The translations under genes and the position numbers were made by a program. Positions 1,384 to 26,788 of a stretch of 54,973 nucleotides of DNA are shown here, one piece after another (position 1 is the stretch's first letter; each line of letters starts with the position of its first letter). The notes below the pieces were generated by a model. It was given only the letters and a program-made list of their open reading frames with translations, ran no database searches and was not told the DNA's origin. The stretch covers positions 1 to 54,973 of the forward strand of contig JALAGF010004555.1 in NCBI GenBank assembly GCA_030167865.1, given 5' to 3'. Origin of the DNA: Craspedostauros australis (Eukaryota).

Positions 1384-4300
1384 ATGGGCAAGATGAGGTC
1401 CTGGATCTTTGGCAGCCAGCGGCAGACATCAGAAGACTCGACGCAAGATGCCAGCGCTTCAGCAACGGGCAGCGGCAACGCCGCCCCTCCTCATCGATCA
1501 TCGCAAGAAGCCATTACAAACATTCCTCAAGAGACGCCAAGGTACGCATCCATCGTTTGCGACTCCATTGTGTCCAATGTCTTCATGATCTCAAGCTGTC
1601 GCAGCAATGGACAGCCCGATCCATCAACTCATATGGTCACATCCTCACAACTCATCTCCACCTCCTCTGCTTCTCTCCACTCAACTCAATTCGGCTCAAC
1701 TCAACTATTTGCGCATCTACCCACACCTACCCACCCTTTTCTCTCTCTTTCATCGATTCAACAGCCGAGGATTCAGCAGCAACAGAGACACAGGCGGCGG
1801 AATGCTGTCGGAAGGAGCTGTCGGCTTCTTCTCATCGGTCGTCGGTCGCTCTGCCGGACGATCCGCAGCGCAGGATGCAGAGATTGAGCGCAAGGTCAGC
1901 CTCGCAGCGCGCAACGTCGGCGATGGCGTGCAACGCATCGTCATGATGGCCAAGGGCAGAGGAGATTCCACAGGCGATTGGAAGTCGCAGCTGCTCAAGC
2001 TCCTCGGTGGCTCCGACAAGATGGGCGTGTCCTGCGACATGGACATCCTCCTGGCGCATCAGACCAGCGACAAGTTCGTGCAGCGGTGTCTGGAGAACGA
2101 GCTGCCACCCAACATGATACACTGCCTGCGTCTCCTCAGAGTGCTCGAGCTGCAGCATGCAACGCAGCAGCACAAGAAGGCCACCGACAAGAAGGCGCCG
2201 GTCCAATCCATCTCCTCGAAGGCCACCAGCAAGGTCAGCCAGCTCCTGTGCCGCCTTTGCAAAGACAAGGCGGTGGGAGAGCAGCTGCAGCAGCATCTCT
2301 TCGGCCTGCTCGCATTGTCCGGCGCGTCCTACCCCGCGTCCGGAGTCCACGTCGCCAGAGCGGCATCGCAGGTTATCGTCGCCTTTTCCGAAAACTGTCT
2401 CAACGAATCCCTCGTTTGGTTTCTGCACGACCGCAAGATGATCATACACATGACGGACGATATTAGGGAGCTCTGCGGCATGGCCACCAGCAACAGCGGC
2501 AGCAAGGACGCTGGCGATGGTGGAAATGGTAGTGGTAGCGGTACTAACGCAACAGCCAGCCCCCAGACGGGCAGCAAGACTGGCGCGGCCGCGCTCAGCC
2601 TGTACGGAGCGCCAGCTGAAGAGCATGGGTTGTGGGCCGTATCGTTGGCAACCGTCGTCCATCTCGTCGTTAACTCTTGCAACCACGAATGCATCGAACT
2701 CTTTCGAGATTTCACATCCGCCAAAGGCAACCAGGTGCTGCAGCATGCCATCCTCAACTCGAAATCGAAGCACGGCAAGAAGCTCATGGAGCTCATCCCT
2801 CTCCTGGCCAGCTGCCGCATCAGCGTCCAGATGGAGGACGCAGACGAATCCGACACCAACAGCGCAACCATCAATGCCATCGCCGCTTCCGGCGACAAGA
2901 TGGACAGCCTTTCCAACAGAGCAATGGAGAAGCTTGCCATGAACCCCGCAGCCTTCTCCATCATGGAGGAGATCATGTTCCATTCGATACCCATGCTGCA
3001 GGCCTACGAAAAAGAGCACCAAGGGAAACGTCCAAAGATCACAGATGACGCCGACTCCACGTCAAGCCTTGCCAGATACGCAATCGAGGTGGCAAAGAAG
3101 CAGCGCTTCGTCGCGGGCAAATCGCAAGGCGCAGGTGAGAACGAATCCTTCGATCTCGCCACCGATCTCTTGCTCGCCTGCCTGCAGCTCTACTCGGAAC
3201 ATGCCGAGAACTACGAGAGGCTGGAGGAGCACAACCGTCTCATGACCTTCTACATCCTCTCATTCCCCTCCTTCTCGGATGAGAACCTCAAGGTACTCGT
3301 CCTCAAGACTGCGGAATTCGTCATCAGCGGTGTGTCCGGTGCCGACTTCATACAATGCATCTCCGTCATGAGCGATGTCTTCGCCGCCATATGCAAGCAG
3401 CTGCTCCACGATTCCGCAAACAACGCCGTGGACACGGAGGAATTCAACGGATTCCTCGTCGATGCCAGACTCATGTGCGAAACCTTCGAAAGCTTGCTCC
3501 GATTCGACAACCGTGTCGCGCCAGCCGTCAGCCAGCGGGGCACGCTCTCGAACATCGTCGAATCTCTTGTGGGCAACGTGCTCCACGAGTGGGAGGCGTA
3601 CAAATCACAACCAGCCTGGCAACCGCGCAAGTTCGTCGTCGATGGCGTGGAGTTCGTGGAACCGCTCGCAACATCGCCATTCGATGAGGTATGCTGTGTC
3701 ATCTGCCGCGTCCTCGCCATCACCTACACGCAGAAGTCCAAGCAGAATCATCGCCTCCTCTACAATGCACACGATCAAACCGAATCCACGTCGGGGGGAA
3801 CCAACGAGAATCGTCAGCTCACGCAGTTCCTGGTGATGTGCATGGAACAGCTCGGCGGCACCGCTTCGCAATCGGCGGCAGCCGTCTTGGAATCAATCAT
3901 GGTGAACCGAAAATCGTTAGAGGCGCTCCAAGAGGACATGGGTTACTATCTGTCCGTCATTGGGTACTTCGTGGACATGTTTGGCCGTGCATCTGGAGTT
4001 CTCGAAGTCGCCAGCAAGTACGCCGATGCATCCGCCTTGCCATCCACCACTCCTGCCACGGCAGCATCTCCCGCTGCGTCCACCACACCTGGCATAACCG
4101 CATCCAGAAGTTTCGATTTGGAGACTATCGAATTCACGTCGAAGGGAAGCGTTCAAAGGAACACCCTGAGTCGCGTCATTGACTTGCTCGGTATGATCAA
4201 GCCCGTGCTCAAAGCAAGTAGCCTGGCACGTGAAGCATTCCGAATTTGCGGTGGCTTCGATTGCATCATTTGGATAATACTCAGCCTGGGAAGCTCCATG

Positions 4301-7300
4301 GAATCAGTGGATGGCGATGCCAGCACCGAAGGGAAAGAAGGGATGGAAGACCTCATCTTTTCGATGCTCGGTGCTGTGCTGGCTATCGTTGAAACTGCCA
4401 CAGCGTACCAGCTCGAGAGGGTGCAAAAGGCCAATCAGTACTCATCCCTTGCGCTTCCAGCAAACAGCCTGGTCGATCCGGTGTCGACCCAGTTCTCCCC
4501 TCCATCTTCGGGGCTGCAAAACCGATACTTCCTGCGGCTGAAGGGCTTCTACCTGGATCTTGCTGTCGCGCTGTCGAAAACAAAGCTCTTCAACTCCCCG
4601 GAAACGGCAAGGAAGGTGATCGCAATGGCAATGGCACACATCGATCCCAGCCTCGAATCGACAGTTGCAACGGGTTCAGGCAACACGCCGACGGCAGGAG
4701 CAACATCATCAGCATCCGCAGCAAGACGGAGCAAGTACCGCACCATCAAGAATCCAGATGGAGCTCGGTTGGTGCTGGGAATCGCGGCGTTGTTGCCGAA
4801 GAATGACGAAGCGATGATCCAGCTATCCAAGGCCTGCTGCGAAGAGGTCGTCAATCTTTGTCAACCGGCCAAATCAGGATCCATGCTTTCACAAATGGCA
4901 ACATGCGGGCTGACATGGAGTTTGACGAATCCCTTGGAGTTTGCACCGTTGCTCGATGACGTCCAACATCACCTCAATTCTCATTTCGTGAACCTGCTGC
5001 GTCATATTGCGTCGTTCAGCATGTCGTACGGAGACTTCGTCGCGACGCTCCGGTGCATCGCCGGCGCAATGCTGTGGGATAACTCGTCGAATCGTCGTGT
5101 GCGGCTGCCAGTTATCAGCTCATCCATCCGACAGTCCACCGCCACGGACGCAGACAACAGCAGGCACGGAGGTGAAGCTGACGAGCACGATGTTGACATT
5201 TGCAGACGGCTTGAGACGCTGTGCACACTGGCAGAGAATGAGGAACGCGTGCCGCATTGCGTGGTCGGTGGCGACTCCATCAACACCATCTCGGTACTGT
5301 TCCATGAAACGAAGGTGGAAGAGAGGCTGTACAAGGCATCCGAGGATGGGCGGTTGAACTTTCTGGAAATTTCCAGCATCGACTCGTCAACTCTAAAGCC
5401 TGGTGGGTTCCTGTCGGCGGGATCAGCCGCAACTGGTTCCTCCACAGGAGGCGAGCGTGTCTGGACGCCTCTGGCAGGCAGCGGGTTTTCCTTTTCCGTC
5501 TGGATCCGTCATCCGCATGTCAACGATGACAAGAAGGATGGCAACTTGCACATCTTCGATTTGTCAAATCCAGCAGCCGCAGCACAAGGGACGCAGGGCA
5601 CGGCAGGGTTCATCTCGGTATGGTACGACCTCAAGGAGCAGCGCTTCAACGTCTTCACATCGTCGTCTCCCAGAGGCGAGCCAACCTGCTTTCCAGTCTC
5701 GCCGTTGCTGCCAGGTGTCTGGCATCATGTCCTGCTGACTTACACGCCATTCAAGCGAACCATGATGGGTCGCAAGTCTGCGTTTCATATCTACCTCGAC
5801 GGTCGACCGCTGGAGTCCGACGTGAAGATCGAAAGCGTCAACCTCCCTCCAAATTCCAAGGTCCTCATCGGTTCTCCCTCCGTATCCATCGCGACAAGCG
5901 GCGTCGTCCGCGGAATGCTCCCAGTCTGGGATCTCGGACCAACTCTCCTGATGGCGAACGTGCTGATGGAGCTTGATGCGACTGCGCTCTTCATGTTCGG
6001 TCCTGACTTCGAGGGCGTGTTTTGGGGCGACAGACCTCAACGCCTCTCGTTGTCAGCCACAGGAACAGCAGGATTCTCCATGTTGGCCGAATCAGGTGAA
6101 CCAGGTAGCGTGGCCAGCGCTCTGAGACGGCGTGAAGTATCGCGGTTGGAGCATGCTGGATCCGTCGCACGCGAACTCGGGTTGGTTGCTGACGCGGGAG
6201 AGGACAACGACTCGCTCGCGTCGCTCGGGCTGCTCTGCACGTTGCCCCCCGATTGTGTCATCTTTGCCTACCGCGCCACTGCTGCATCGGTTGTCAAGAT
6301 AACCTCGGATACGGATGCCATGTCCCATAGCAAACGCAAACCAACAGATGTCATGGTCAACCTGGCACGGCTGAATCCAACCAACGAGGTTGTGTCAACA
6401 GACGCTGATGTGTACGGCAAAGCCGGCACGGTCATTCCACGGTGCTTTGCGGACAACGTTCAATGGGCCGGCGGTCCTGAGATTCTCATGCCGCTCATCA
6501 ACGCCGCGAAGTCCAGCAAGAGCCTCGCGTTGGCATTGCGCTTGATGCGTGCCAGCACGGATAGACATCCGCCGAATTTGGAAATGATGCAGAGCGGAGC
6601 TGGTTACCAGACGCTGGCATTGCTGCTGCAAGGCAAGAGGTTCGTCGACAGTGGCGTCATCGACCAATGCTTCGCCTTTGCCGTGCATGGATTCGATGCA
6701 AGCAAGGAAGAAGAAGTGAAGATGATCAACGAGTTCCCGTACCTGAAGTTGCCAGAAACTTCCGACAGGTGGGTGTTTTCGGACATCGATGCCATGAAGC
6801 AGCTGCTGCTGAATCACCAGGTGTGGGTACTGCGCACGGCAGGTCCACAGATCCCCCTCCGGTTGGTATCCTACATGAACTGCCTCGTCGGACAAAAATC
6901 GATGCACAAGGCCTTCAACTCAAGACGCCTGCATTTGGTCGGAATCGTACGATGGACGTTGCACCTCATGATCGAAGCGGCCGAATTGTACACTGCAGGG
7001 GAGTTCGCGCAGAAGAACGAGAAAAGGAAACGGTTTGGTTCGGAAGATAGCTTCGACGTTGATTTCCGAGAGAAGCTTGGAACCAACAAGGGCTGGTACT
7101 CCGAAGCACCCAGCGTGGAAGCGGTCTCCGTGGGAGGCGATCCAGATAATCCGCTGCTCCAAAGCTGCAAGTCGTTGCTCCGTCGTGTGCTGACGTTCAT
7201 GCTGACACCGGGAGATCTGGATGCCATTGCCGACGCTGCCATGTACACACTCTGCATCGGTCAGCACACAGGACGGACAAGCTTCGCTGACAACCGAACC

Positions 7301-10300
7301 TCTGTCTCCAAGAAGGACCCGTCGATGGGCTCTCAGCGGTTGATGCCTGGCGCAGTAGCACGCGTGTACTTGCTGCGGTTACTGGAGGAGCTCATCGTTG
7401 ATGGCGTCAACGAGATTGTTGCCATACCTGACAAGACCAACGGCAACGATGGGACTACGAAACCACCCGCCAACATCCGACCCCACGCTGGCGGCATTGG
7501 CAATCCAGGCCAAACGTACCTGGCCACCGCGCTGCTGGGTGGAGCAACCAAGGAGGGTGCCATGCATCCCAAGCACACGCAGGCGCAGAACTTTTTGGGG
7601 GCCTTCGCTCGCGTCCTGTCACCAGTCTGGTTCGCGGCGTTGTTGGAGGGATGCCACGAAGAAGCCTCTGCCTCCGCAGTGCTGCGATTGATGATCCTCA
7701 TGGTTCAGAGCTCGCCGAACTTCGCTGCGGAATTCGAAGCCTCCGGTGGATTCGCACCGCTCGTCATGAGCATCCCGAAGTACTCCACCAATTCCAGCAT
7801 CACAATTTCGTTGCTCAGCCAGCTCCTGCGAGTGTCGATCCTCCACCTTCCGTGTTTTCCCACGCTGAATGCTGCGCAATTGTGCGTGGTGTTTGACGAG
7901 GAGGATGAGCTGTCAGAGATCATGACCAGGGCACACGCACGAGCAGCGCTGATGAAGAAGATCGATCCGACAGCTGGCATCTTCGCGCTGATTGCGGAAT
8001 GCATCGGGAGGAATCTTCAGCTTGCACCATTGGACACCGAAGTTGGTCGAAAGGCCAGGGAGACAAACGATGCGATTCTGGATCTCCTCACGCATCGTCA
8101 CGTATCGTCTCCGGCATTCCAGGAGTACTGCCGCACGCCCGACTTCCTGGAGCCGCTGGCGCAGGCGCTTTGCCTTTTGTACGATGAGAGATTCCAAAGG
8201 CTGCACCTCCAGGGACTCGAGAATCATCACATGGAGAACAACCGCGAGAACGAGAAGGAGGACGAAGCAGAGGCACCGTCAGGCAAAAAGGCAACCCGAA
8301 GATCCCGAAGAGGATCGCTCGCCCAGATCCCAAAGGACACAACGCCGACGGAACGGCTGATTGGCAAGCAAGGTGAGAAGTTGTTCCATGCAGGTTCCGA
8401 TATGGTGATGATGCTCCGCATGATCGTTTCCCACGCCGCCATGTCCGGCCCGATCGCCGCTCCGCTGGTCGCTGCCCTCTTCCGTTCCTTCCCAGTCCAT
8501 GCCAGCACCGACCAAGTGGAAGCGTACCATCTGGTGCTGACCGAGATCTGCAAGTCCGTTGTCGACGATGCGATCGAATTGAGCGAGGCGACTTCGTTGG
8601 CAAGCTGCGTGGGAATTTGTTCCGTCCTGCTGGACCGACTTCTTTCTGGTTGCTTCAACTCCGAGGCCATGCTCATTTGCATGGAAGCATCCATCGCGCT
8701 GCTGCGTTGCGTGTCATCGCCAGAGTCGCAGGCGTCGAGGTCGTTGGCAACGGCAGAAGTCTCATTGATCGCAGTCGACATTGCGCACATCGCTCGGCTA
8801 TCTTGCTTGGGCGTGCTCTACAGGAGTAGATCGTTGTTCGAAGGAGACGAAGGTGACCCCGAGCTTCAGGCTCTCGCGTTGGAATGCATCGACAGCAACA
8901 TCGAGGGCCTCATGATCGTGCCCAAGAATGCTGGGCAGAATCGAAAGCTGTCAAACAACAGCATCCACCCGACGCCACCCACGAACTCCAAGCTCAATCC
9001 TCTGTGGCATTCGACCAGCGTGGCCCGTTGCTCACCGTCATGGGCTGAATTCATGTATCCTGACCTGAGTGAAATCGAGGACCCGCTGAGGATGTTCATC
9101 GTCGGGCTCATGGTGGAGATGCCGTATGCGTTGAGGGATGAGGACAACGACCTGCGAACATATGCCATCAACATCACGGTGACGCTGATCCAGCAGAGGA
9201 GAGGCATCATGTCAGGCATCCTCATCCGCGAAATCCAAGTTGGTGACAAGCTGGAGACTGTGGATGCCATGAACCGTGGTGGATTCGGTGCGCTACTGGT
9301 CGCACACGAAGCAGGCGGCAGCTCATCGAAGAAGATGTTCGGCTCGTTCTTTGACTGGCTGGAAAAGCACGGTCCGAAGATCGACATGGTCTTCGAAGGC
9401 AATCGATCCGAGAGCATGCAGCTCTTCCCCGGACTTTCCAACGGAGCAGAGTCACCGCAACAAGCCATCGAGAATGAGCAAGAGCTCATGTCGACACGAT
9501 TGAGGAATGAACAAACAGCGAATGATAGGACCGTCGTGGGTGGAATCGAACGGGCGGAGCACGCGCAGAACTGCATCGATCGGTCAGCCGAAAGTCACAT
9601 GCATTGGAAGCGTCACGGATTCGACGACCTCGCGTCGGGTGCCACCAATTGGAAATTCTTGCTGCGGAGGTTGAAGGGATCTGGATCCATCTGGGAAGGC
9701 GGACCCCGAGTCAAGTCCAACTCCGTCCTCTGCCGACAACGGCAGCTGTATGCCACACTCGTCCAATCCGTGGCAAAGACAGTTTCGGCCCCCAACGAAG
9801 ATGAGCAGATGCATCAAGACCTTGTGAAGCGGTGGAAGCTGGATCTCACGGAGGGAACCGAGCGCCAGCGCCGTCGTTTGCTCCCGAACTACGAATTCCA
9901 TGGACTCTACAACATCGATGAGAAGATAGATCTCGACGTCACGCACCAAGACACGGAAAGCCTGGCATCGACTACGAAATCGACTGACGTAGATCCCAGC
10001 TCCAAACCTGATGCGGCAGTCGACGGCGAGGGCCAGCCAGCATCTGAAATTTCCGATGGTGACGAGGTTAGCGACGATGACAATGGCGATGGCGTGAGTC
10101 GGAATGTGTCCGATTTGAAACAGCAAGCAATCATCGTGGGGAGCTCCGGCGTGGAGGCGACAGCAGAGCTGCTGAAGGAATTGAACATTAAGAAGCTCGA
10201 GACGAACGGTGACGACGATGATGACTTCGATGACGATGACGAATCGCATACCGTGGGAACGGCCGTTTCGGGCAGCAGTGCGACCGATGGCAATGCCAGC

Positions 10301-13072
10301 GTACTTGAAGGCTCATCCTCCCAGGCAGCCGACGAAGAGCCACAGCCACAACCGCAGGCACCAGAAAACGCCGATGATGCCGAAAATCGGGCAGAGACCG
10401 AGAATGCATCGAGCTATGACCTGATCACTGGATTGCTTCAGATCGGGGATTGGCCGGAGGAGTCTTACAACGTGCGTCGGTGCACAGGTTTGGAGGTTCG
10501 CAAGGCATTGCTGCTTTGGTGCAAGGAGGCGATCTACATCATCGACGGGTTCGAGTCGACGGACGGCGAGGGTCTGGAAGGGCAGATCGTGCGCGTTGAG
10601 AAGGAGCAATCGTCGTACAGCATCAACCTCCGACCAAAGGACTTCAACGCGTCAGGTGATACTTCCAGCGACGTCGGAAGCAACAGCAACCACGAAGGTA
10701 CGGGCGGTCACGGGGCAGACTCCGTGAAGGCGAACAAAATGACCGCGCAAGAATCCACTAGTGACGTGCTGTACCAGCACCGCAGCCAGCGCATCGCATT
10801 CGCCGATCTTCGATCCGTCTTCCGCCGTCGGTACCAATTGCAACAGATCGCGCTGGAGCTTTACGACATCCACAATAACGGCACGTTAGTCGCGTTCGCG
10901 TCGAACAAAATTCGCGAGGACGTGCTGGCGAAGGTCTTGGAATCGCCGCTTCCCAACAGCCTCTTCAGCTCCAACTACGGGACTTCCATCAATTACAAAA
11001 AGTTCATGAACAACCTGAAGGCGAAGATCGTCTCGCAATGGGTGAACGGCAAGATGACCAACTTTGAGTTCCTCATGCATCTCAATTCTTTCGCTGGTCG
11101 GTCGTACAACGATCTGACCCAGTACCCCGTCTTCCCTTGGGTCATCGCGGACTACGAGAGCGAAGAGATCGACCTCAACGACCCAAACACATACCGAGAC
11201 TTGTCGAAGCCAATGGGTGCGCTGGGCGACGAAAGAGCGCAGCAATTTCGAGACAGGTACGAGGCGCTGCAGGCGAACTACTTCAACGAGGATGAGCCGC
11301 CGCCGTTCCATTACGGAACTCACTACTCCTGCGCCGCCTACGTCCTCTACTATCTGATGAGGCTGGAACCATTCTCGCGTCTCGCCCTCACCCTTCAGGG
11401 TGGGCGATTCGACGTCGCTGATCGGTTGTTCCACAACATCGGGAGCAGCTGGAAGAGCGCCAGCGAGGAGAACTTACAGGATGTGCGAGAGCTGATCCCT
11501 GAATTCTTCTACCTTCCCGACTTTCTGACAAACACGAACGGTTTCGACTTTGGAACCACACAGAAGGGCAAGCCCGTGCATGATGTCACCCTGCCGAAAT
11601 GGGCGAAGGGCGACCCGAAACGCTTCATCCGAATCAACCGGATGGCGTTGGAGAGCGAGTACGTGAGCAAGAATTTGCACAAATGGGTGGATTTGGTGTT
11701 TGGCTGCAAGCAACGCGGCGAAGAGGCGGTGAAGGCCTTGAACACCTTCGTGCACGTGACATACGAAGGTTCTGTGGATTTGGACTCCATGACAGATCCA
11801 GTCCAGAGGGCGTCGACCATCGCTCAGATCCAGAACTTTGGCCAGACGCCGTCGCGATTGGAACGAAGGCCGTTCTCCCAACGTTTCGTGTACCGTCCGC
11901 TGAAGAACGACAGCATCGACTTTGGTGCGTTGCCATACCTCGCACCGCTGACCCCGCCGTTCTGCATCGTCGGAGCCGTGCAACGGTGCCAGGTGAAACG
12001 TAACGTAACGGAAACCTGCAAGATGGGCCTCGCTGGTCCCGACGATCGCGCCGTGGGGGATATGTGCCTCGTGAAGGGGCAGATTATCGGCGTGGGACGC
12101 ATGTGCGCGTTGAACATCCCATCGAAGACGTACGTTCGGTACGGTGGTGCCAACGATGGCGTCAGCGTCCACACCGCGGTTGCCAGCACGCGCAATCGCG
12201 AACTCAACAAGTTGATCAGCATGCACGACATCTTGCATCGTTCCGAGATCAGCGCGCTGAAAGTGTCGCTGGATGGTCGATGGATGATCACGGGTTGCAT
12301 CGACTCCACCGTGCGCGTATGGAAGAACTGCGAACGGTCGTTCGAGCTGTGCGCCACTCTTTGCGGTCACGAGGGGTGGAAGATCACGTCCTTGGATGTG
12401 TCCACCGAGTTTGGCACGCTGGTCACTGGATGCGCGCAGGGCAACGTGATGCTGTGGGACATCCGCACCCTCACCTTCGTCCGTCGACTGCGACACCCGT
12501 TCAAGGACGACAGCAAGAAGTTCATGCACCAGGCCACATCCGTGTCGGTGAACCATCTCAATGGCAACATCGTGACGCTCGTGGGGTCTCATCTTAGCGT
12601 GTTCGACATCAACGGTACCCTGCTAGCATCGGAGTATTCACCGGGTGCGGAGCCCACGTGTGCCGTCGCCACCGACTGTCCGGAATGGAAGGAAAAGGGT
12701 GTCGTCGCCATCACGGGGCACGTGAATGGAGAGGTGCGCTTCTGGAGTTTGGACAGCGACGTCAAAACGTTGACGGTGCGGCATCTCATGGTGGACCTGG
12801 AGCACACGTGCCAGATCACGGCGCTCCGTGCAACCGGCGTCGACCGGCAGGATACGCTGCTGGTCGGCGACGAATCGGGAAAGATGTCGGTGTTCAAGAC
12901 GGTGCAATTGGAAAACCTCAGCACGAAGGAGCTGACGGAAGTCATTTCCGAACTGAAGGCGGAGCAGCCGAAGCCCAATGCGAAGGGCGACCGCAAGGGC
13001 GCCGGAGAACTCGCAGCAGGCATCCTTGGTTTGCTGCCGGGTCAGGGCCGAGAAACTGAAGAGGCACTGTAG
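1384..13072 (+). CDS. BEACH domain-containing protein (ConA-like lectin, PH, BEACH, WD40; LvsA/SPIRRIG/WDFY3-like); exons 1384..1541 and 1765..13072
   Basis: BEACH motifs WVNGKMTNFEFLMHLNSFAGRSYNDLTQYPVFPWVIADY, HYGTHYS, DVRELIPEFFYLPDFL and FGQTP (~11040-11850). PH-BEACH RRRYQLQQIALE; ConA-like GFSFSVWI...WHHVLLTY...IYLDG (~5480-5810); C-terminal WD40 repeats. The intron 1542..1764 (AG|GTACGC ... pyrimidine tract, ACAG|) joins the MGKMRSW exon in frame (phase 2), so ORF residues from 1607-1764 are intronic. Confidence 0.95.
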
Positions 13073-21952: not shown

Positions 21953-23644
21953 CGTGCTTGTCGTCTGCTTCCTCTTCACCTTGAATCTCCTTGTGTGGTC
22001 TGCGCCGAACTGTGCTGCTGTGCTGCTGAGTAGAGTGGAGTAGAGTGGAGTGGAGTTGAGTAGATCGTATCTGTGTTATGCTGATAGCTGTGGTGTGGAT
22101 CGCAGTGGTGTTGTGAGGTATTTTGTGCAACCAACAACAATAACAACAACAACAGCAGCGCATGAACAAGAAGCGCGACTCGACACGTGCTTTCCCACCA
22201 CAGCGACGGAACCTCACACCAAGACGACGGAGAGAGGAGCGGCAGCGTGTTTCGAAGACATCGAGAAGATCTTCCGCTTTCGGATCCCCACTTCGTTCGT
22301 TGTCGATCTGCGCTGTCTTCGAGTTCTTCGTGCCGTGTCCTGTCGTGTCCACTCCACTCCCTTTGTTCGCGACTGTCACCAACAACGCCAACAGCGCGAT
22401 CACAGCGTTGCCGCTGTTCTTCCAGTTTGCGTTCGTTTCTGCTAGAGTCCATGTGGTCGACGATTCGTCGCGATTGACTATGACGTTAAATAGTAGTTAT
22501 TTTGCGGGGAAGAATAGAAGAACAAACAGCGAACACAAATGACACTCATCCGCCTTGCATCCCATCAGTGAAGAATGAAACGATTGAATTCGTGACTCAA
22601 TGATCCACATAGTGTGTCCCGAGTACTATGTAAAAGTTGTTCTGAACCAATTGGGTGTTGCGTGGAATTACTACATCTTCACATTAAAGAACGTTGAACG
22701 AACGTTATATCAATGTCGTATTGTATGAGTCACGAACCATTAGTCACATCCAGTCTTGTGAGATTGTTTGACACGATGATGCTCGCAGATGCGAGCACAG
22801 CAAACAGGAACGCACGCGTTCGCTTGGGCATGAAATTTCAGTTTTGCTCAGCCGACGTCGTGCACCAATGGGAACGCCCATTGACATTTCGCTGACTCGT
22901 TGGTGTCTTGGTGTGACAACATGCTTCCACGAGTTCGGGATGTGCCAGCGATGAATTTGCAACGCCAAACCCGCATTTGCGAGCTGCAAGGTGACAGCCA
23001 ATCAATCAACCCACTCCGACGGATAACGAACCAACAACTTCACGCGATACACCGTCTTGTGGATGTCCCCAAAAGGCCGCTCTGCGAAAGATGTCCAGAA
23101 CAGCGACATCGACGGGAAGAGCGAACAACAACGAGGATACAGCAACTGCGCAGCGGCTGCACCACATCTCAAACAGAGACAGCGGAGAAATTGCAACAGA
23201 GCCGTATTGCCGAAAGGACACGAAGAACGGAAAAAGAACAAGGAAAGAAAATGCGTGGCATCAGCAACGCCTCCAACAGCACGTTAGATGCCTGCTGGAT
23301 ACTGTTGTCGCCTGATGTTGCTGTCGTGGTTGCCACCGTCGTGCCTCTGCCTGCCCCTCAATCTTCCAGACCTTTCGCTCTTCGCGACCACCATCATTCT
23401 CGTCTTCGTGCTCGCGGCAACGCACAATCAAAGCATCACGGCAAGCTGCCATCACCACCACCATCAACACAACAACACCAACATCTCTCACAAAATTATT
23501 TCATTTCCAGTTCGTCACAACTTGCACCAAACTTGCACTAAGCGCAAACACCACATCAATACAACACATCAATACTATACATCAGTACTATTCCATATCA
23601 ATACTCTCCGAACTAGAATATTCTATTCTATTCTATTACACACC

Positions 23645-24970
23645 ATGTCGATAGCATCAGCAGCCGCATCCGCCGTGAGCATGAGCCACGAGAAGGAAGC
23701 CGAGAACATTTCCTCCCTCCCATCGCAGCAACGCCTGTTCGCCCAGCAGCATGCATCCGCAGCAGGCTCCAGCCCAAGCAACGACAATGGCACAGGCAGC
23801 TCCCTGCAGAAATCCACCATCTACAAGCGCCACCAAGCAAGGCTCCGCAGAAGCATGTCGTTGCGCGATGATCCGCGTCCGTCCGTGGTCCGCGTGCTCT
23901 CTCTGCTTCCTGGATTCCGCATGGTCATTCCGCAGTATGATCCCTCTTTGGCGTCGGAGAAGAATTCTGCGCCAGCCGCAGCGCTGCCGCTCTCGATGGC
24001 CACTTCGGCAGCCTTCTCGGAGGACACCGTCTTCGTCTCTGGCGATGTTGGCTCATCTTCATCGTCTTCTTCATCGTCGCCCTTTGCTTCTGCTGCGGCA
24101 TCCAGCGCTTCGGCGTCAACAGTGACGCCCTTGCACACCATGGTGGCAGCCGCAGTTGCGGCAAGCGCAGCCAACGGATTCTTCCGCAACTCCGCGGCGC
24201 AGGCCAGCACGCAGCTGTTCGCTTCGGGCGGCGCCCTCTCTGCCGGCGTCAAGAGGAATCCGTTCTCTATGCCACCGGCAGCAGCAGCACCGCCAACCAC
24301 AGCTTCTCCTTTGTCATTTGCCATCACGCAGTCTGGTGTGCTCGCAGTTAATCCAACCGGCGCCGCTGCTCCGCAACCTTCCGTCGGCAACGCCCTGCAA
24401 TCGTCGGCTGCCACGAAAGCAGTCCCACGCCAATCCGCTGTGGTCCTGGCCAGATCGGTCGCGGCAACATCCGCGATCTTCACGGCCCGTGCCATGGCGC
24501 AGCAGCAAACTGGCGGCGATTCCGTGCTCTCCAACATCGCGGCTGGGCTTGTGGCAGGAGGAGCGGCGACGCTTGCCGCCAAGCCTGCCACGATACCAAC
24601 CACGCACATGATGCCATCCAACCTCAGCGCCGTGTCCTGCGTCTCGTCGGCCACTGCAACAACCACAGCAATCCCGTCCAGCACGTTGGCGGCCCGAGAA
24701 ATGGTGGCCGCCTTCCTCTACTTCCAGCTCTACGACATCACGCGCGCCACAATCGCGCCAACACACGAACAGACCATGACATCGGTTGCCACGACGTCTG
24801 CCGTGGCGGGTGCTATCGCGGGATCCCTCGCACAAGGAGTACGAAGCAGCATGCACCGCAGCGGCGGAGTGATCCGCAATGCCGCGGTCGCCGCACCCAA
24901 ACACGCGCTGCTCTTTGCCACCTACGACACTCTTCTGCATGCCATGCAGATGTCCCCAAACAACGAATAG
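23645..24970 (+). CDS. Ala/Ser-rich protein with a degenerate mitochondrial-carrier (SLC25)-like C-terminal region
   Basis: CACCATG start at 23645. C-terminal segments AAGLVAGGAATLAAKP, AREMVAAFLYFQLYD, AVAGAIAGSLAQ and AAPKHALLFATYD resemble the odd and even helices of carrier repeats. The PX[DE]XX[KR] signature is absent. Confidence 0.55.
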   Translation: MSIASAAASAVSMSHEKEAENISSLPSQQRLFAQQHASAAGSSPSNDNGTGSSLQKSTIYKRHQARLRRSMSLRDDPRPSVVRVLSLLPGFRMVIPQYDPSLASEKNSAPAAALPLSMATSAAFSEDTVFVSGDVGSSSSSSSSSPFASAAASSASASTVTPLHTMVAAAVAASAANGFFRNSAAQASTQLFASGGALSAGVKRNPFSMPPAAAAPPTTASPLSFAITQSGVLAVNPTGAAAPQPSVGNALQSSAATKAVPRQSAVVLARSVAATSAIFTARAMAQQQTGGDSVLSNIAAGLVAGGAATLAAKPATIPTTHMMPSNLSAVSCVSSATATTTAIPSSTLAAREMVAAFLYFQLYDITRATIAPTHEQTMTSVATTSAVAGAIAGSLAQGVRSSMHRSGGVIRNAAVAAPKHALLFATYDTLLHAMQMSPNNE

Positions 24971-25576
24971 ATAGACAAAAACAACAGTACCAGATAATAC
25001 AAGCGAAATCCAATTCGACCACAAACACAACTACTCCGCACTAATACATTACATAGAGAGAGAGCGCGCGAGTATTCAACACAATGATGTTGGCAGAACA
25101 TGGCGAATCTGAAAGCAAGCGCAGTTGAGGAATAGAAGAATCTCCACACGGACACTGACAATCAAATAATACAGAACAAGCAGACCTGCGAGTATCGGCG
25201 TCGTTGGATGAATGACGACACACAGCGCTCCGCTGCGGAGTGAATTTATTCCATTGTTCTCTATTATTCCATTGTATAATAGTGGTTTACGAATGAGAGA
25301 GAGAGAGAGAAGCAATAGGGCCCGCACGTATTTTTGGAAGTACCAATGTGTACGCATGTAATATGGACGCATGTCTTGCATCATAGTCGTACACCGTACC
25401 AGCACGTTCCGAAAAGAACCAAGCCACCAATGGATGCCATTGTCTTTGTCACTTGTGGTCATTCGCATTGTATTGCATTGCACTGCGTTGCATGGCGTCG
25501 TTTTGGATTTGATAGTCGACCCTCCGTATCGTACGAGCGCAACGACCATAGTATTCTTACACACATATGGTCGTTG

Positions 25577-25653
25577 TCTGTCGTTGTTCAGATGAAATCT
25601 GCTGCCCTGCTCTGTCGCAATCGAGCAGACTCCATCGTCATTCCGCACGGAGA
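25577..25653 (-). promoter_or_regulatory. SECIS-like element (selenocysteine insertion sequence) in the 3' UTR
   Basis: RNA reads AUGAC (25641-25637), GAUGGAGUCUGCU, 20-nt apex CGAUUGCGACAGAGCAGGGC, AGCAGAUUUCAUC, UGAA (25590-25587). This gives a 13-bp uninterrupted helix (2 G-U pairs) stacked on a UGAN/NGAN tandem G.A quartet, a UUGC/GCAG apical mini-helix and a weak helix I. It lacks the canonical apical AA. Confidence 0.7.
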
Positions 25654-25724
25654 TCCATTCCTATCTCAGCCTATCAAAACATTCGATAGGACGCCATGTC
25701 AAGCGCCGCAGGGAATGCAGCGCT

Positions 25725-26042
25725 CTACTTGTCAGTCTGATCTTTGTTGTCGGCATTGTCAGCCTCATCGTCGTCATCGCGAGAGAATTCGATGCCGCTC
25801 CACACGCCGGTGCCCTTGAAGGTGTCGGTCTGACCGGCTGCGTAGCCTGCCAGATCGATGGCGCTCTTGATGGATCAGTACACGACCATGGTGGGTGGTG
25901 CGAATGCGTTCAGCTGCGTCGAAGATGGAGCGCTGGTTGTGGCGACGGTGGCAGTAGTTGTGCGTGGTTGCACAACGAAGGCAGAAGTGGTGGTGGTGAG
26001 GACGGTGACGAAGTAAGCCAGCTGGAGAAGGAATTTGGACAT
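25725..26042 (-). CDS. Small plastid-targeted protein (105 aa) with an in-frame TGA at codon 56; candidate selenoprotein
   Basis: Manual translation: MSKFLLQLAYFVTVLTTTTSA-FVVQPRTTTATVATTSAPSSTQLNA-FAPPTMVVY[TGA 25877-25875]SIKSAIDLAGYAAGQTDTFKGTGVWSGIEFSRDDDDEADNADNKDQTDK[TAG]. Signal peptide plus SA-F cleavage motif plus S/T-rich transit peptide; ACCATG start context; C-ending codon bias continues after the TGA; SECIS-like hairpin downstream. Confidence 0.8.
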
Positions 26043-26067
26043 GGTCGATGTTGTTGCGCTGCGTTGC

Positions 26068-26102
26068 TTTGCTTTACTTTACTTTACTTTACTTTACTTT
26101 GC
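26068..26102. repeat. (CTTTA/CTTTG)n pentanucleotide microsatellite just upstream of the 26042 ATG
   Basis: ctttgctttactttactttactttactttactttg. Confidence 0.85.
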
Positions 26103-26788
26103 GTTGTTTGTGTTCACAACGGCGATTATGACATGAACCAACGAGTGCGCACGAAATGAACAAACCGAAGAATGCGATCGTCAACAACAATGAGGCAACT
26201 GCGATGACGTGGGAACAATCATGATTCAGCGCATCGTCTCATTCGTTGGTGATTGGAGGAATGAGTTGTCGTCACAGTGTCAGTACTAATGACTCATTGG
26301 ACTCAAGCCACCACAATGAGCGACAAAAAGCCGGCAACTCACATTTCACCGGTCTTCTAATTGCGAGATGGACATTTGCGATGTACCAACACGCAAAGTG
26401 TTCACATCTCCACCCCATCGCTCCCACAAAACACATTGCTGGACAACTCCTCAACATTCTGGTCGTAGTATTGCCTTTGTCATCGTCCTTGGCGTTGATC
26501 TTCCCGGCATTCTACAACAATCCACAACACTTTGAGACAGACGAATTCAAGGAGGAGGCGTGACATTGGGCTGTACGTATAGTACCATACGGCCTACACG
26601 GACGACTACCATACTCGCACTCTGTTCACTGCCATTATACATACACTCAAAGTGGAAGCAGACACTCCTGCTGAAGACCTGAGATTGGACTTCCAGAGTT
26701 GCACGCACTCTCTTCGCATTGCACATTGCGCATTGCAGACGGCAGCTACACTGCGGCAGTACGGAAATAGTGGGAAATAACAACAAAA

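Follow-up and report, generated by a model that had tools for sequence, protein, structure and literature searches.

Selenocysteine (Sec) insertion in eukaryotes proceeds through an established pathway in which SBP2 binds the kink-turn core of a hairpin, the Sec insertion sequence (SECIS), and eEFSec delivers Sec-tRNA (PMC6627142, PMC13059024, PMC4989117). Adenines at the apex of the element are conserved "with few exceptions" (PMC4989117), and the printed SECISearch patterns require AA, AR or CC after an arm of 10-13 nt (PMC2375036, PMC3753652). According to PMC3753652, new selenoproteins are found only where a Cys homologue exists. Here, we describe a locus within a 54,973-nucleotide stretch of Craspedostauros australis DNA (contig JALAGF010004555.1, hereafter the window), at which a hairpin with CGA in place of the apical adenines lies behind a short gene with an in-frame TGA at codon 56. 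We present comparative sequence evidence for this hairpin as a very probable eukaryotic SECIS through which the UGA codon is recoded, and we hold with strong confidence that Sec would be inserted there. The encoded protein belongs to a family that is probably, but not certainly, undescribed. The sequence of the apex itself is unremarkable; the real findings are its freedom across the genome and the hidden protein family.

The hairpin behind codon 56

Folding of the 77-nt stretch at 25577..25653 with RNAfold yields, on the minus strand, exactly the structure that a preliminary description of these letters had proposed without naming the strand: the AUGAC/UGAA quartet, a 13-bp helix II, an unpaired CGA and a mini-helix (-26.6 kcal/mol, z -2.27, with 8/200 shuffles folding as well). 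Wider flanks weaken the z-score to -1.19, and the plus-strand fold (z 0.12) was rejected. Pair probabilities are at least 0.95 along the 13 bp of helix II, the three letters of CGA are unpaired with probabilities of 0.82, 0.90 and 1.00, and the interior between the core halves holds no AA. The description as textbook suits no more than the core and helix II, since below the internal loop a constrained fold gives a weak helix I of 4 bp. An alternative register pairing CUGCUC with GAGCAG, also suggested there, had to be discarded, as it is about 10 kcal/mol worse than the main fold (-13.1 vs -23.1 kcal/mol) with a pair probability of ~1e-6.

The hairpin is located in the 3' untranslated region (UTR), 83 nt past the TAG stop codon and 234 nt past the in-frame TGA (Table 1). 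AUGAC/UGAA agrees with the RUGAN/KGAW core of tandem GA pairs that forms the kink-turn, the TGA being invariant in orthologue alignments, and helix II falls within the expected length of about 11-14 bp above the core. The apex departs from AA/AAR (rarely CC). Since exceptions to the apical AA are known, this departure bars the name "canonical SECIS", not function as a SECIS. The hairpin exceeds what chance would yield: a 13-bp core-closed helix was reached by 1/5000 dinucleotide shuffles of the 3' region, and the hairpin is the sole such case in 509,946 bases of genome sequence, a figure that counts both strands and includes the window. The primary SECIS pattern is uninformative alone, with 1193 matches genome-wide. 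An 11-bp inverted repeat follows the hairpin directly at 25540-25576 (minus).

Table 1. Coordinates of the gene and of the putative SECIS within the window
Feature	Position	Strand	Basis or remark
Intronless coding sequence, 105 residues, putative Sec at residue 56	25725..26042	minus	stop TAG at 25727-25725
Predicted bipartite presequence	25902..26042	minus	sequence, hydropathy, same layout in homologues
Conserved core, residues 50-89	25776..25895	minus	Sec-bearing amphipathic helix, then YxxGxxDxxxGTGV motif
In-frame TGA, putative Sec codon	25875..25877	minus	TGA in 81/87 homologous gene copies
Putative SECIS element, type II shape	25587..25641	minus	fold; top match in window of held-out model R2
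5' core half AUGAC	25641-25637	minus	preceded by GA, as in most orthologues
Helix II, 13 bp	5' arm 25636-25624; 3' arm 25603-25591	minus	
CGA, unpaired, at canonical AA/AAR place	25623-25621	minus	unconserved in orthologues
Mini-helix, 4 bp	UUGC 25620-25617; GCAG 25610-25607	minus	6-nt loop GACAGA between
GGC between GCAG and helix II 3' arm		minus	
3' core half UGAA	25590-25587	minus	fits UGAN/KGAW consensus (PMC3753652)

Codon 56 among homologues

Protein searches returned 2, 64 and 186 matches successively, 120 of the 186 being listed. Among the 174 proteins examined, 40 lack the motif; the remaining 134 bear Trp (131) or Cys (3) at the Sec column. Taken by itself, this predominance of Trp would suit the view that the TGA is a true stop, arising from a recent TGG-to-TGA nonsense mutation or a sequencing error or ending a short peptide, with the hairpin there by chance. 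A first metagenome scan by protein gave 14 pattern matches, none of which was confirmed. A DNA pattern for the downstream motif, blind to codon 56, retrieved 95 metagenome loci. Ten with a profile score <30 were dropped (eight chance-level matches, L067 and L093), leaving 85 loci with 87 copies of the gene, among which 52 cores are distinct. The Sec column is TGA in 81 of the 87 copies and 48 of the 52 cores, and never another codon; the four unscored cores comprise one with TGA in frame, two in which an intron splits TG from A, and one with no visible first exon.

All 15 database Trp proteins whose core matches a fetched locus have TGA at this codon in the DNA, indicating that the Trp of the databases is a gene-calling artefact: these short metagenome contigs were translated with TGA as Trp, masking Sec. 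Gene catalogues show the protein either mistranslated or truncated. The same homologues end in TAA (29), TAG (18) or TGA (4), and a second Trp column is TGG in 39/39 Trp cases, which speaks against both a true stop and a code with TGA as Trp. Orthologues share the TGA together with the sequence flanking it on either side, and silent sites vary freely in the codons downstream. The frame past the TGA is maintained from diatoms to Ostreococcus; in the latter, stopping at this codon would yield a peptide of 4 residues. A contig from sequencing run X1 confirms the TGA of the window. The nonsense or error reading was rejected once the DNA-level homologues showed an invariant TGA, and a true stop is now very improbable. 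The gene callers' choice of code is what a nuclear code with TGA as Trp would predict; we give that code hardly any credence, as other Trp codons are TGG, TGA terminates 4/52 of these genes, and in this genome known Sec positions are encoded by TGA.

The Cys form is confined to one cluster of three database protein sequences (P0048, P0068, P0069), aligned to the UGA column. The sole organism-labelled homologue, a Pseudo-nitzschia multiseries gene model (P0029), skips seven residues around the Sec position. The gene adjoining L034 clusters with an O. mediterraneus protein, extending the range of the family to Ostreococcus, and there the frame apparently opens four codons ahead of the TGA and lacks a presequence. 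Seven green-algal-type loci (L034, L084, L021, L020, L063, L039 and L100) have an apparent start at a conserved Met that precedes the TGA by four or five codons. Their lack of a presequence suggests that cellular location may differ among members. A 39-column tree is mostly without resolution, its bootstrap unsettled. Several loci are of separate note: L059 and L060 are tandem gene copies ~880 nt apart, each with a TGA and a hairpin to itself; L067, a distant member, combines a TGA with a hydrophobic helix at the C-terminus and a clean hairpin lacking AA; and L093 is a divergent form without a TGA, fused to a long C-terminal part.

Conserved hairpins with variable apices

We scored orthologues by a fixed rule, which asks for a core-closed hairpin no more than 220 nt past the stop codon, in 49 genes (3 of the 52 were left out for want of 3' sequence). 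Such a hairpin occurs in 37/49 sense UTRs, compared with 1/49 antisense, 1/35 distal and 119/2258 background tiles, which bears out the earlier suggestion of a functional SECIS as very probable. GAATGAC is present in 25 of these 37 elements. Helix pairing is kept despite sequence change, with 5.5/6 pairs formed within an element vs 3.3 when arms are swapped (a comparison biased this way by the selection of the elements), and each helix position shows many pair types. In MAFFT alignments of the elements the 3' arm is out of register; a structure-fitted alignment reaches 75.7% paired, with 0/500 shuffles as good. A model (R1) built from 15 short-apex orthologue elements, the window element excluded, gave 31 matches across 36 loci, and 30 of these fall where expected. 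The refined model R2, from which the window element was again held out, ranks that element 1/20 (19.9 bits, E 0.026), the maximum in 100 kb of background being 13.2 bits. Six of the 12 orthologues that fail the rule show the core by inspection, four further out or imperfect and two with an apex of ~230 nt. At L058, L090 and L015, conserved SECIS core halves surround a ~230-nt pyrimidine/purine hairpin 3' of the gene; the CCCT-repeat introns of these loci look eustigmatophyte-like, a taxon that we assume.

The apices of the 37 elements have no common motif, with interiors of 25-86 nt, and CGA is not conserved among them. By sequence, 18 match NTGA-10-13-AA-15-39-GA, and none has CC. Of the 32 rows with a full core, 12 have no AA; the predicted fold pairs the AA of another 12 and leaves that of the other 8 unpaired, and these 8 include 4/5 Mamiellophyceae-like rows of the poorly resolved tree.

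The genome itself encodes a tRNA-Sec (76.6 bits, anticodon TCA) and SepSecS, the two machinery parts searched. We examined 18 of its loci of known selenoprotein families, ten of which carry TGA and represent 8 distinct genes. A GA-AUGAC-R...Y-UGA hairpin lies behind 7 of these 8 genes, among them GPx, SelT, SelU, SelM-like and MsrA, with interiors of 28-114 nt. Six of the seven lack AA at the canonical place, the MsrA element alone having AA at 10-13; farther out from one SelM-like gene lies a second candidate hairpin, which does have AA. Seven of the eight loci without an evident TGA gave nothing, and the eighth a weak 5-bp run. Since most hairpins of known genes are without the canonical AA, a free apex is the norm in this genome. 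The idea of a lineage-specific variant thus holds in that AA-less apices are usual here, and fails for CGA as the substitute motif. The window element does escape default searches, failing the printed SECISearch patterns, as had been supposed. This was also offered as the reason that the gene was overlooked, an explanation weakened by the 18/37 orthologues that fit the AA pattern in a family still apparently undescribed; the rarity of Cys homologues, small size and TGA-as-Trp gene calling provide a better account. Further hidden selenoproteins, also suggested in the preliminary description, are plausible.

Programmed read-through inserting Trp, Cys or Arg could also account for the conserved TGA, the hairpin then acting as a read-through enhancer or an mRNA-stability element. 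Trp would suit the hydrophobic surroundings of the Sec position, few Cys homologues exist (3/134 motif-bearing database proteins), and the possible members L058 and L090 may stem, by our assumed taxon, from a lineage described as lacking selenoproteins. That report concerns the Eustigmatophyceae (PMC7539508). However, TGG occupies the Sec column in 0/87 gene copies, the sole sense substitution within the motif is Cys, and the hairpin has an invariant TGA/GA core at a SECIS-like distance, the same core as that behind the known selenoprotein genes of this genome and missing behind 7/8 paralogue loci with no evident TGA. We consider read-through improbable. A different proposal grants the SECIS and takes CGA as a specific functional replacement of AA, comparable to the CC of mammalian SelM/SelO. 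The three letters are unpaired where AA would be expected, and a GA or GAA step is nearby in some orthologues; no apex motif is shared by the 37 orthologue elements or the seven others of the genome, which makes a dedicated replacement unlikely.

Several observations weigh against a SECIS that recodes codon 56. The hairpin rule was formulated after a first look at the data, and 12/49 orthologues fail it. Covariation in the sequence-only alignment is weak (59% paired vs 58% at a one-column slide), R1 gives the window element 10.0 bits and rank 4/13, and R2 scores one antisense hairpin at 19.5 bits. Behind three near-identical SelU copies, a core-closed hairpin is absent from the 1.5 kb that follows. 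The protein is without a CxxU/UxxC motif or known fold, the RNA status of run X1 is a guess (none of the listed runs is recorded as RNA), and that run may be the source sample; runs X2 and X3 contributed nothing. Finally, the Rfam SECIS models have zero matches in the window or genome. These models also miss 16/16 control loci, AA-bearing ones included, and their silence is therefore owed to more than the apex. The Rfam scan gave one chance snoRNA match (E 8.7). The SelU copies are L140, L141 and L142 (G000 C1201, C3411 and C3810), with TGA in UxxC.

The protein family and its relation to known selenoproteins

The protein has a glycine-rich motif that is invariant, as well as an acidic tail, and contains no Cys; Met is absent from the frame downstream of the TGA. 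A helix is predicted at residues 51-69 in a structural model of low overall confidence (predicted local distance difference test, pLDDT, 68; predicted template modelling score, pTM, 0.31), and the hydrophobic moment of the core helix is 1.0-1.2. A hydrophobic signal to about residue 21, an SA/F junction and a Ser/Thr-rich transit-like part make the N-terminus look like a diatom-type bipartite plastid presequence, by the rules that we take to hold for such presequences. One gene copy was found in the genome. The run X1 contig is identical across 24900-26048 without joints and carries both the open reading frame and the hairpin. Immediately upstream of the start codon is a short AAAGT-type tandem repeat (26049-26111). 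Elsewhere in the window, a convergent frame of 560 codons at 23288-24970 (+) has zero Pfam matches, its 3' end being reached by the X1 contig, and an open frame of 3827 codons occupies 1589-13072 (+).

Pfam returned nothing below E 0.1 for any of 32 family members, NCBIfam only one chance match (E 0.082), and PDB sequences 0 matches. A fold search with the model found no known fold (best Z 2.5), and a protein atlas search with P0002 gave a best score of 0.85, a lead only. In a literature search that extended neither to subscription papers nor to some selenoproteome lists, no description of the family or of an AA-less diatom SECIS was found, and the motif gave 0 papers. GTGV[WF] has 0 occurrences in four supplement files of PMC2375036, and the motif is absent among the supplement candidates of PMC3753652 searched, one file lying outside the search. 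The families listed in PMC7539508, its supplement outside the comparison, offer no obvious match.

By analogy with the established pathway, SBP2 would bind the GA/GA kink-turn core of the window hairpin and eEFSec would bring Sec-tRNA. The apex would be unconstrained in sequence and length in this diatom-like lineage, suggesting that the element can do without the apical AA or that other contacts take its place. In a cryo-EM study, eEFSec is reported to touch the apical end of the SECIS. Once the presequence is removed, Sec would lie close to the mature N-terminus, where the amphipathic helix begins. The protein may act in redox chemistry at a plastid membrane surface, a guess that we put somewhat below even chance; as it lacks Cys, recycling of the single Sec by an outside reductant would be favoured. 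A Sec-liganded subunit of a complex and a selenium-dependent regulator are other conceivable roles.

More broadly, we lean slightly towards the view that the diatom SECIS is reduced to a kink-turn core and helix with a free apex, that pattern searches consequently undercount algal selenoproteomes, and that this is an undescribed, non-thioredoxin, plastid-sent family of diatoms, secondary-plastid algae, Mamiellophyceae and possibly eustigmatophytes. A new selenoprotein family is a rarity among eukaryotes, and this one was apparently missed despite its presence in Pseudo-nitzschia and Ostreococcus. Elements that naturally lack AA, such as those behind GPx, SelT and SelU here, make the role of the apical adenines directly testable, and they imply that diatom selenoproteins are under-reported by SECIS-first searches. 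Additionally, the TGA-as-Trp artefact can conceal entire selenoprotein families in metagenome protein catalogues, and others may be hidden likewise. The family is a clean target in algae for functional work on selenium use.

SELENOK and SELENOS are small membrane selenoproteins with a single Sec, few Cys homologues and no thioredoxin fold. The closest described element is the eukaryotic type II SECIS (Rfam RF00031, SECIS_1), with which the window hairpin shares its place in the 3' UTR, the AUGA...GA core, the 13-bp helix II and the apical mini-helix. Unlike type II elements, it has no AA, AR or CC atop helix II, a weak helix I and no Rfam score. The long-mini-stem SECIS of Ostreococcus, Chlamydomonas and Dictyostelium likewise combine a lineage-specific apical deviation with a standard core; they differ in having been found by the NTGA_AA_GA and NTGA_CC_GA patterns, and hence keep the apical dinucleotide (PMC2375036). 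Among proteins, the Ostreococcus hypothetical selenoproteins 1-3 and MSP are also algal and without a thioredoxin fold, and hypothetical protein 3 has, like the window protein, a lone Sec without a neighbouring Cys; the printed sequences of proteins 1-3, compared by eye, are unlike this family (PMC2375036). SELENOK and SELENOS, which exist near-exclusively in the Sec form (PMC7539508), resemble the window protein in small size, single Sec and few Cys homologues, whereas the Sec of the window protein is internal, near the predicted mature N-terminus rather than C-terminal, and follows a plastid-type presequence.
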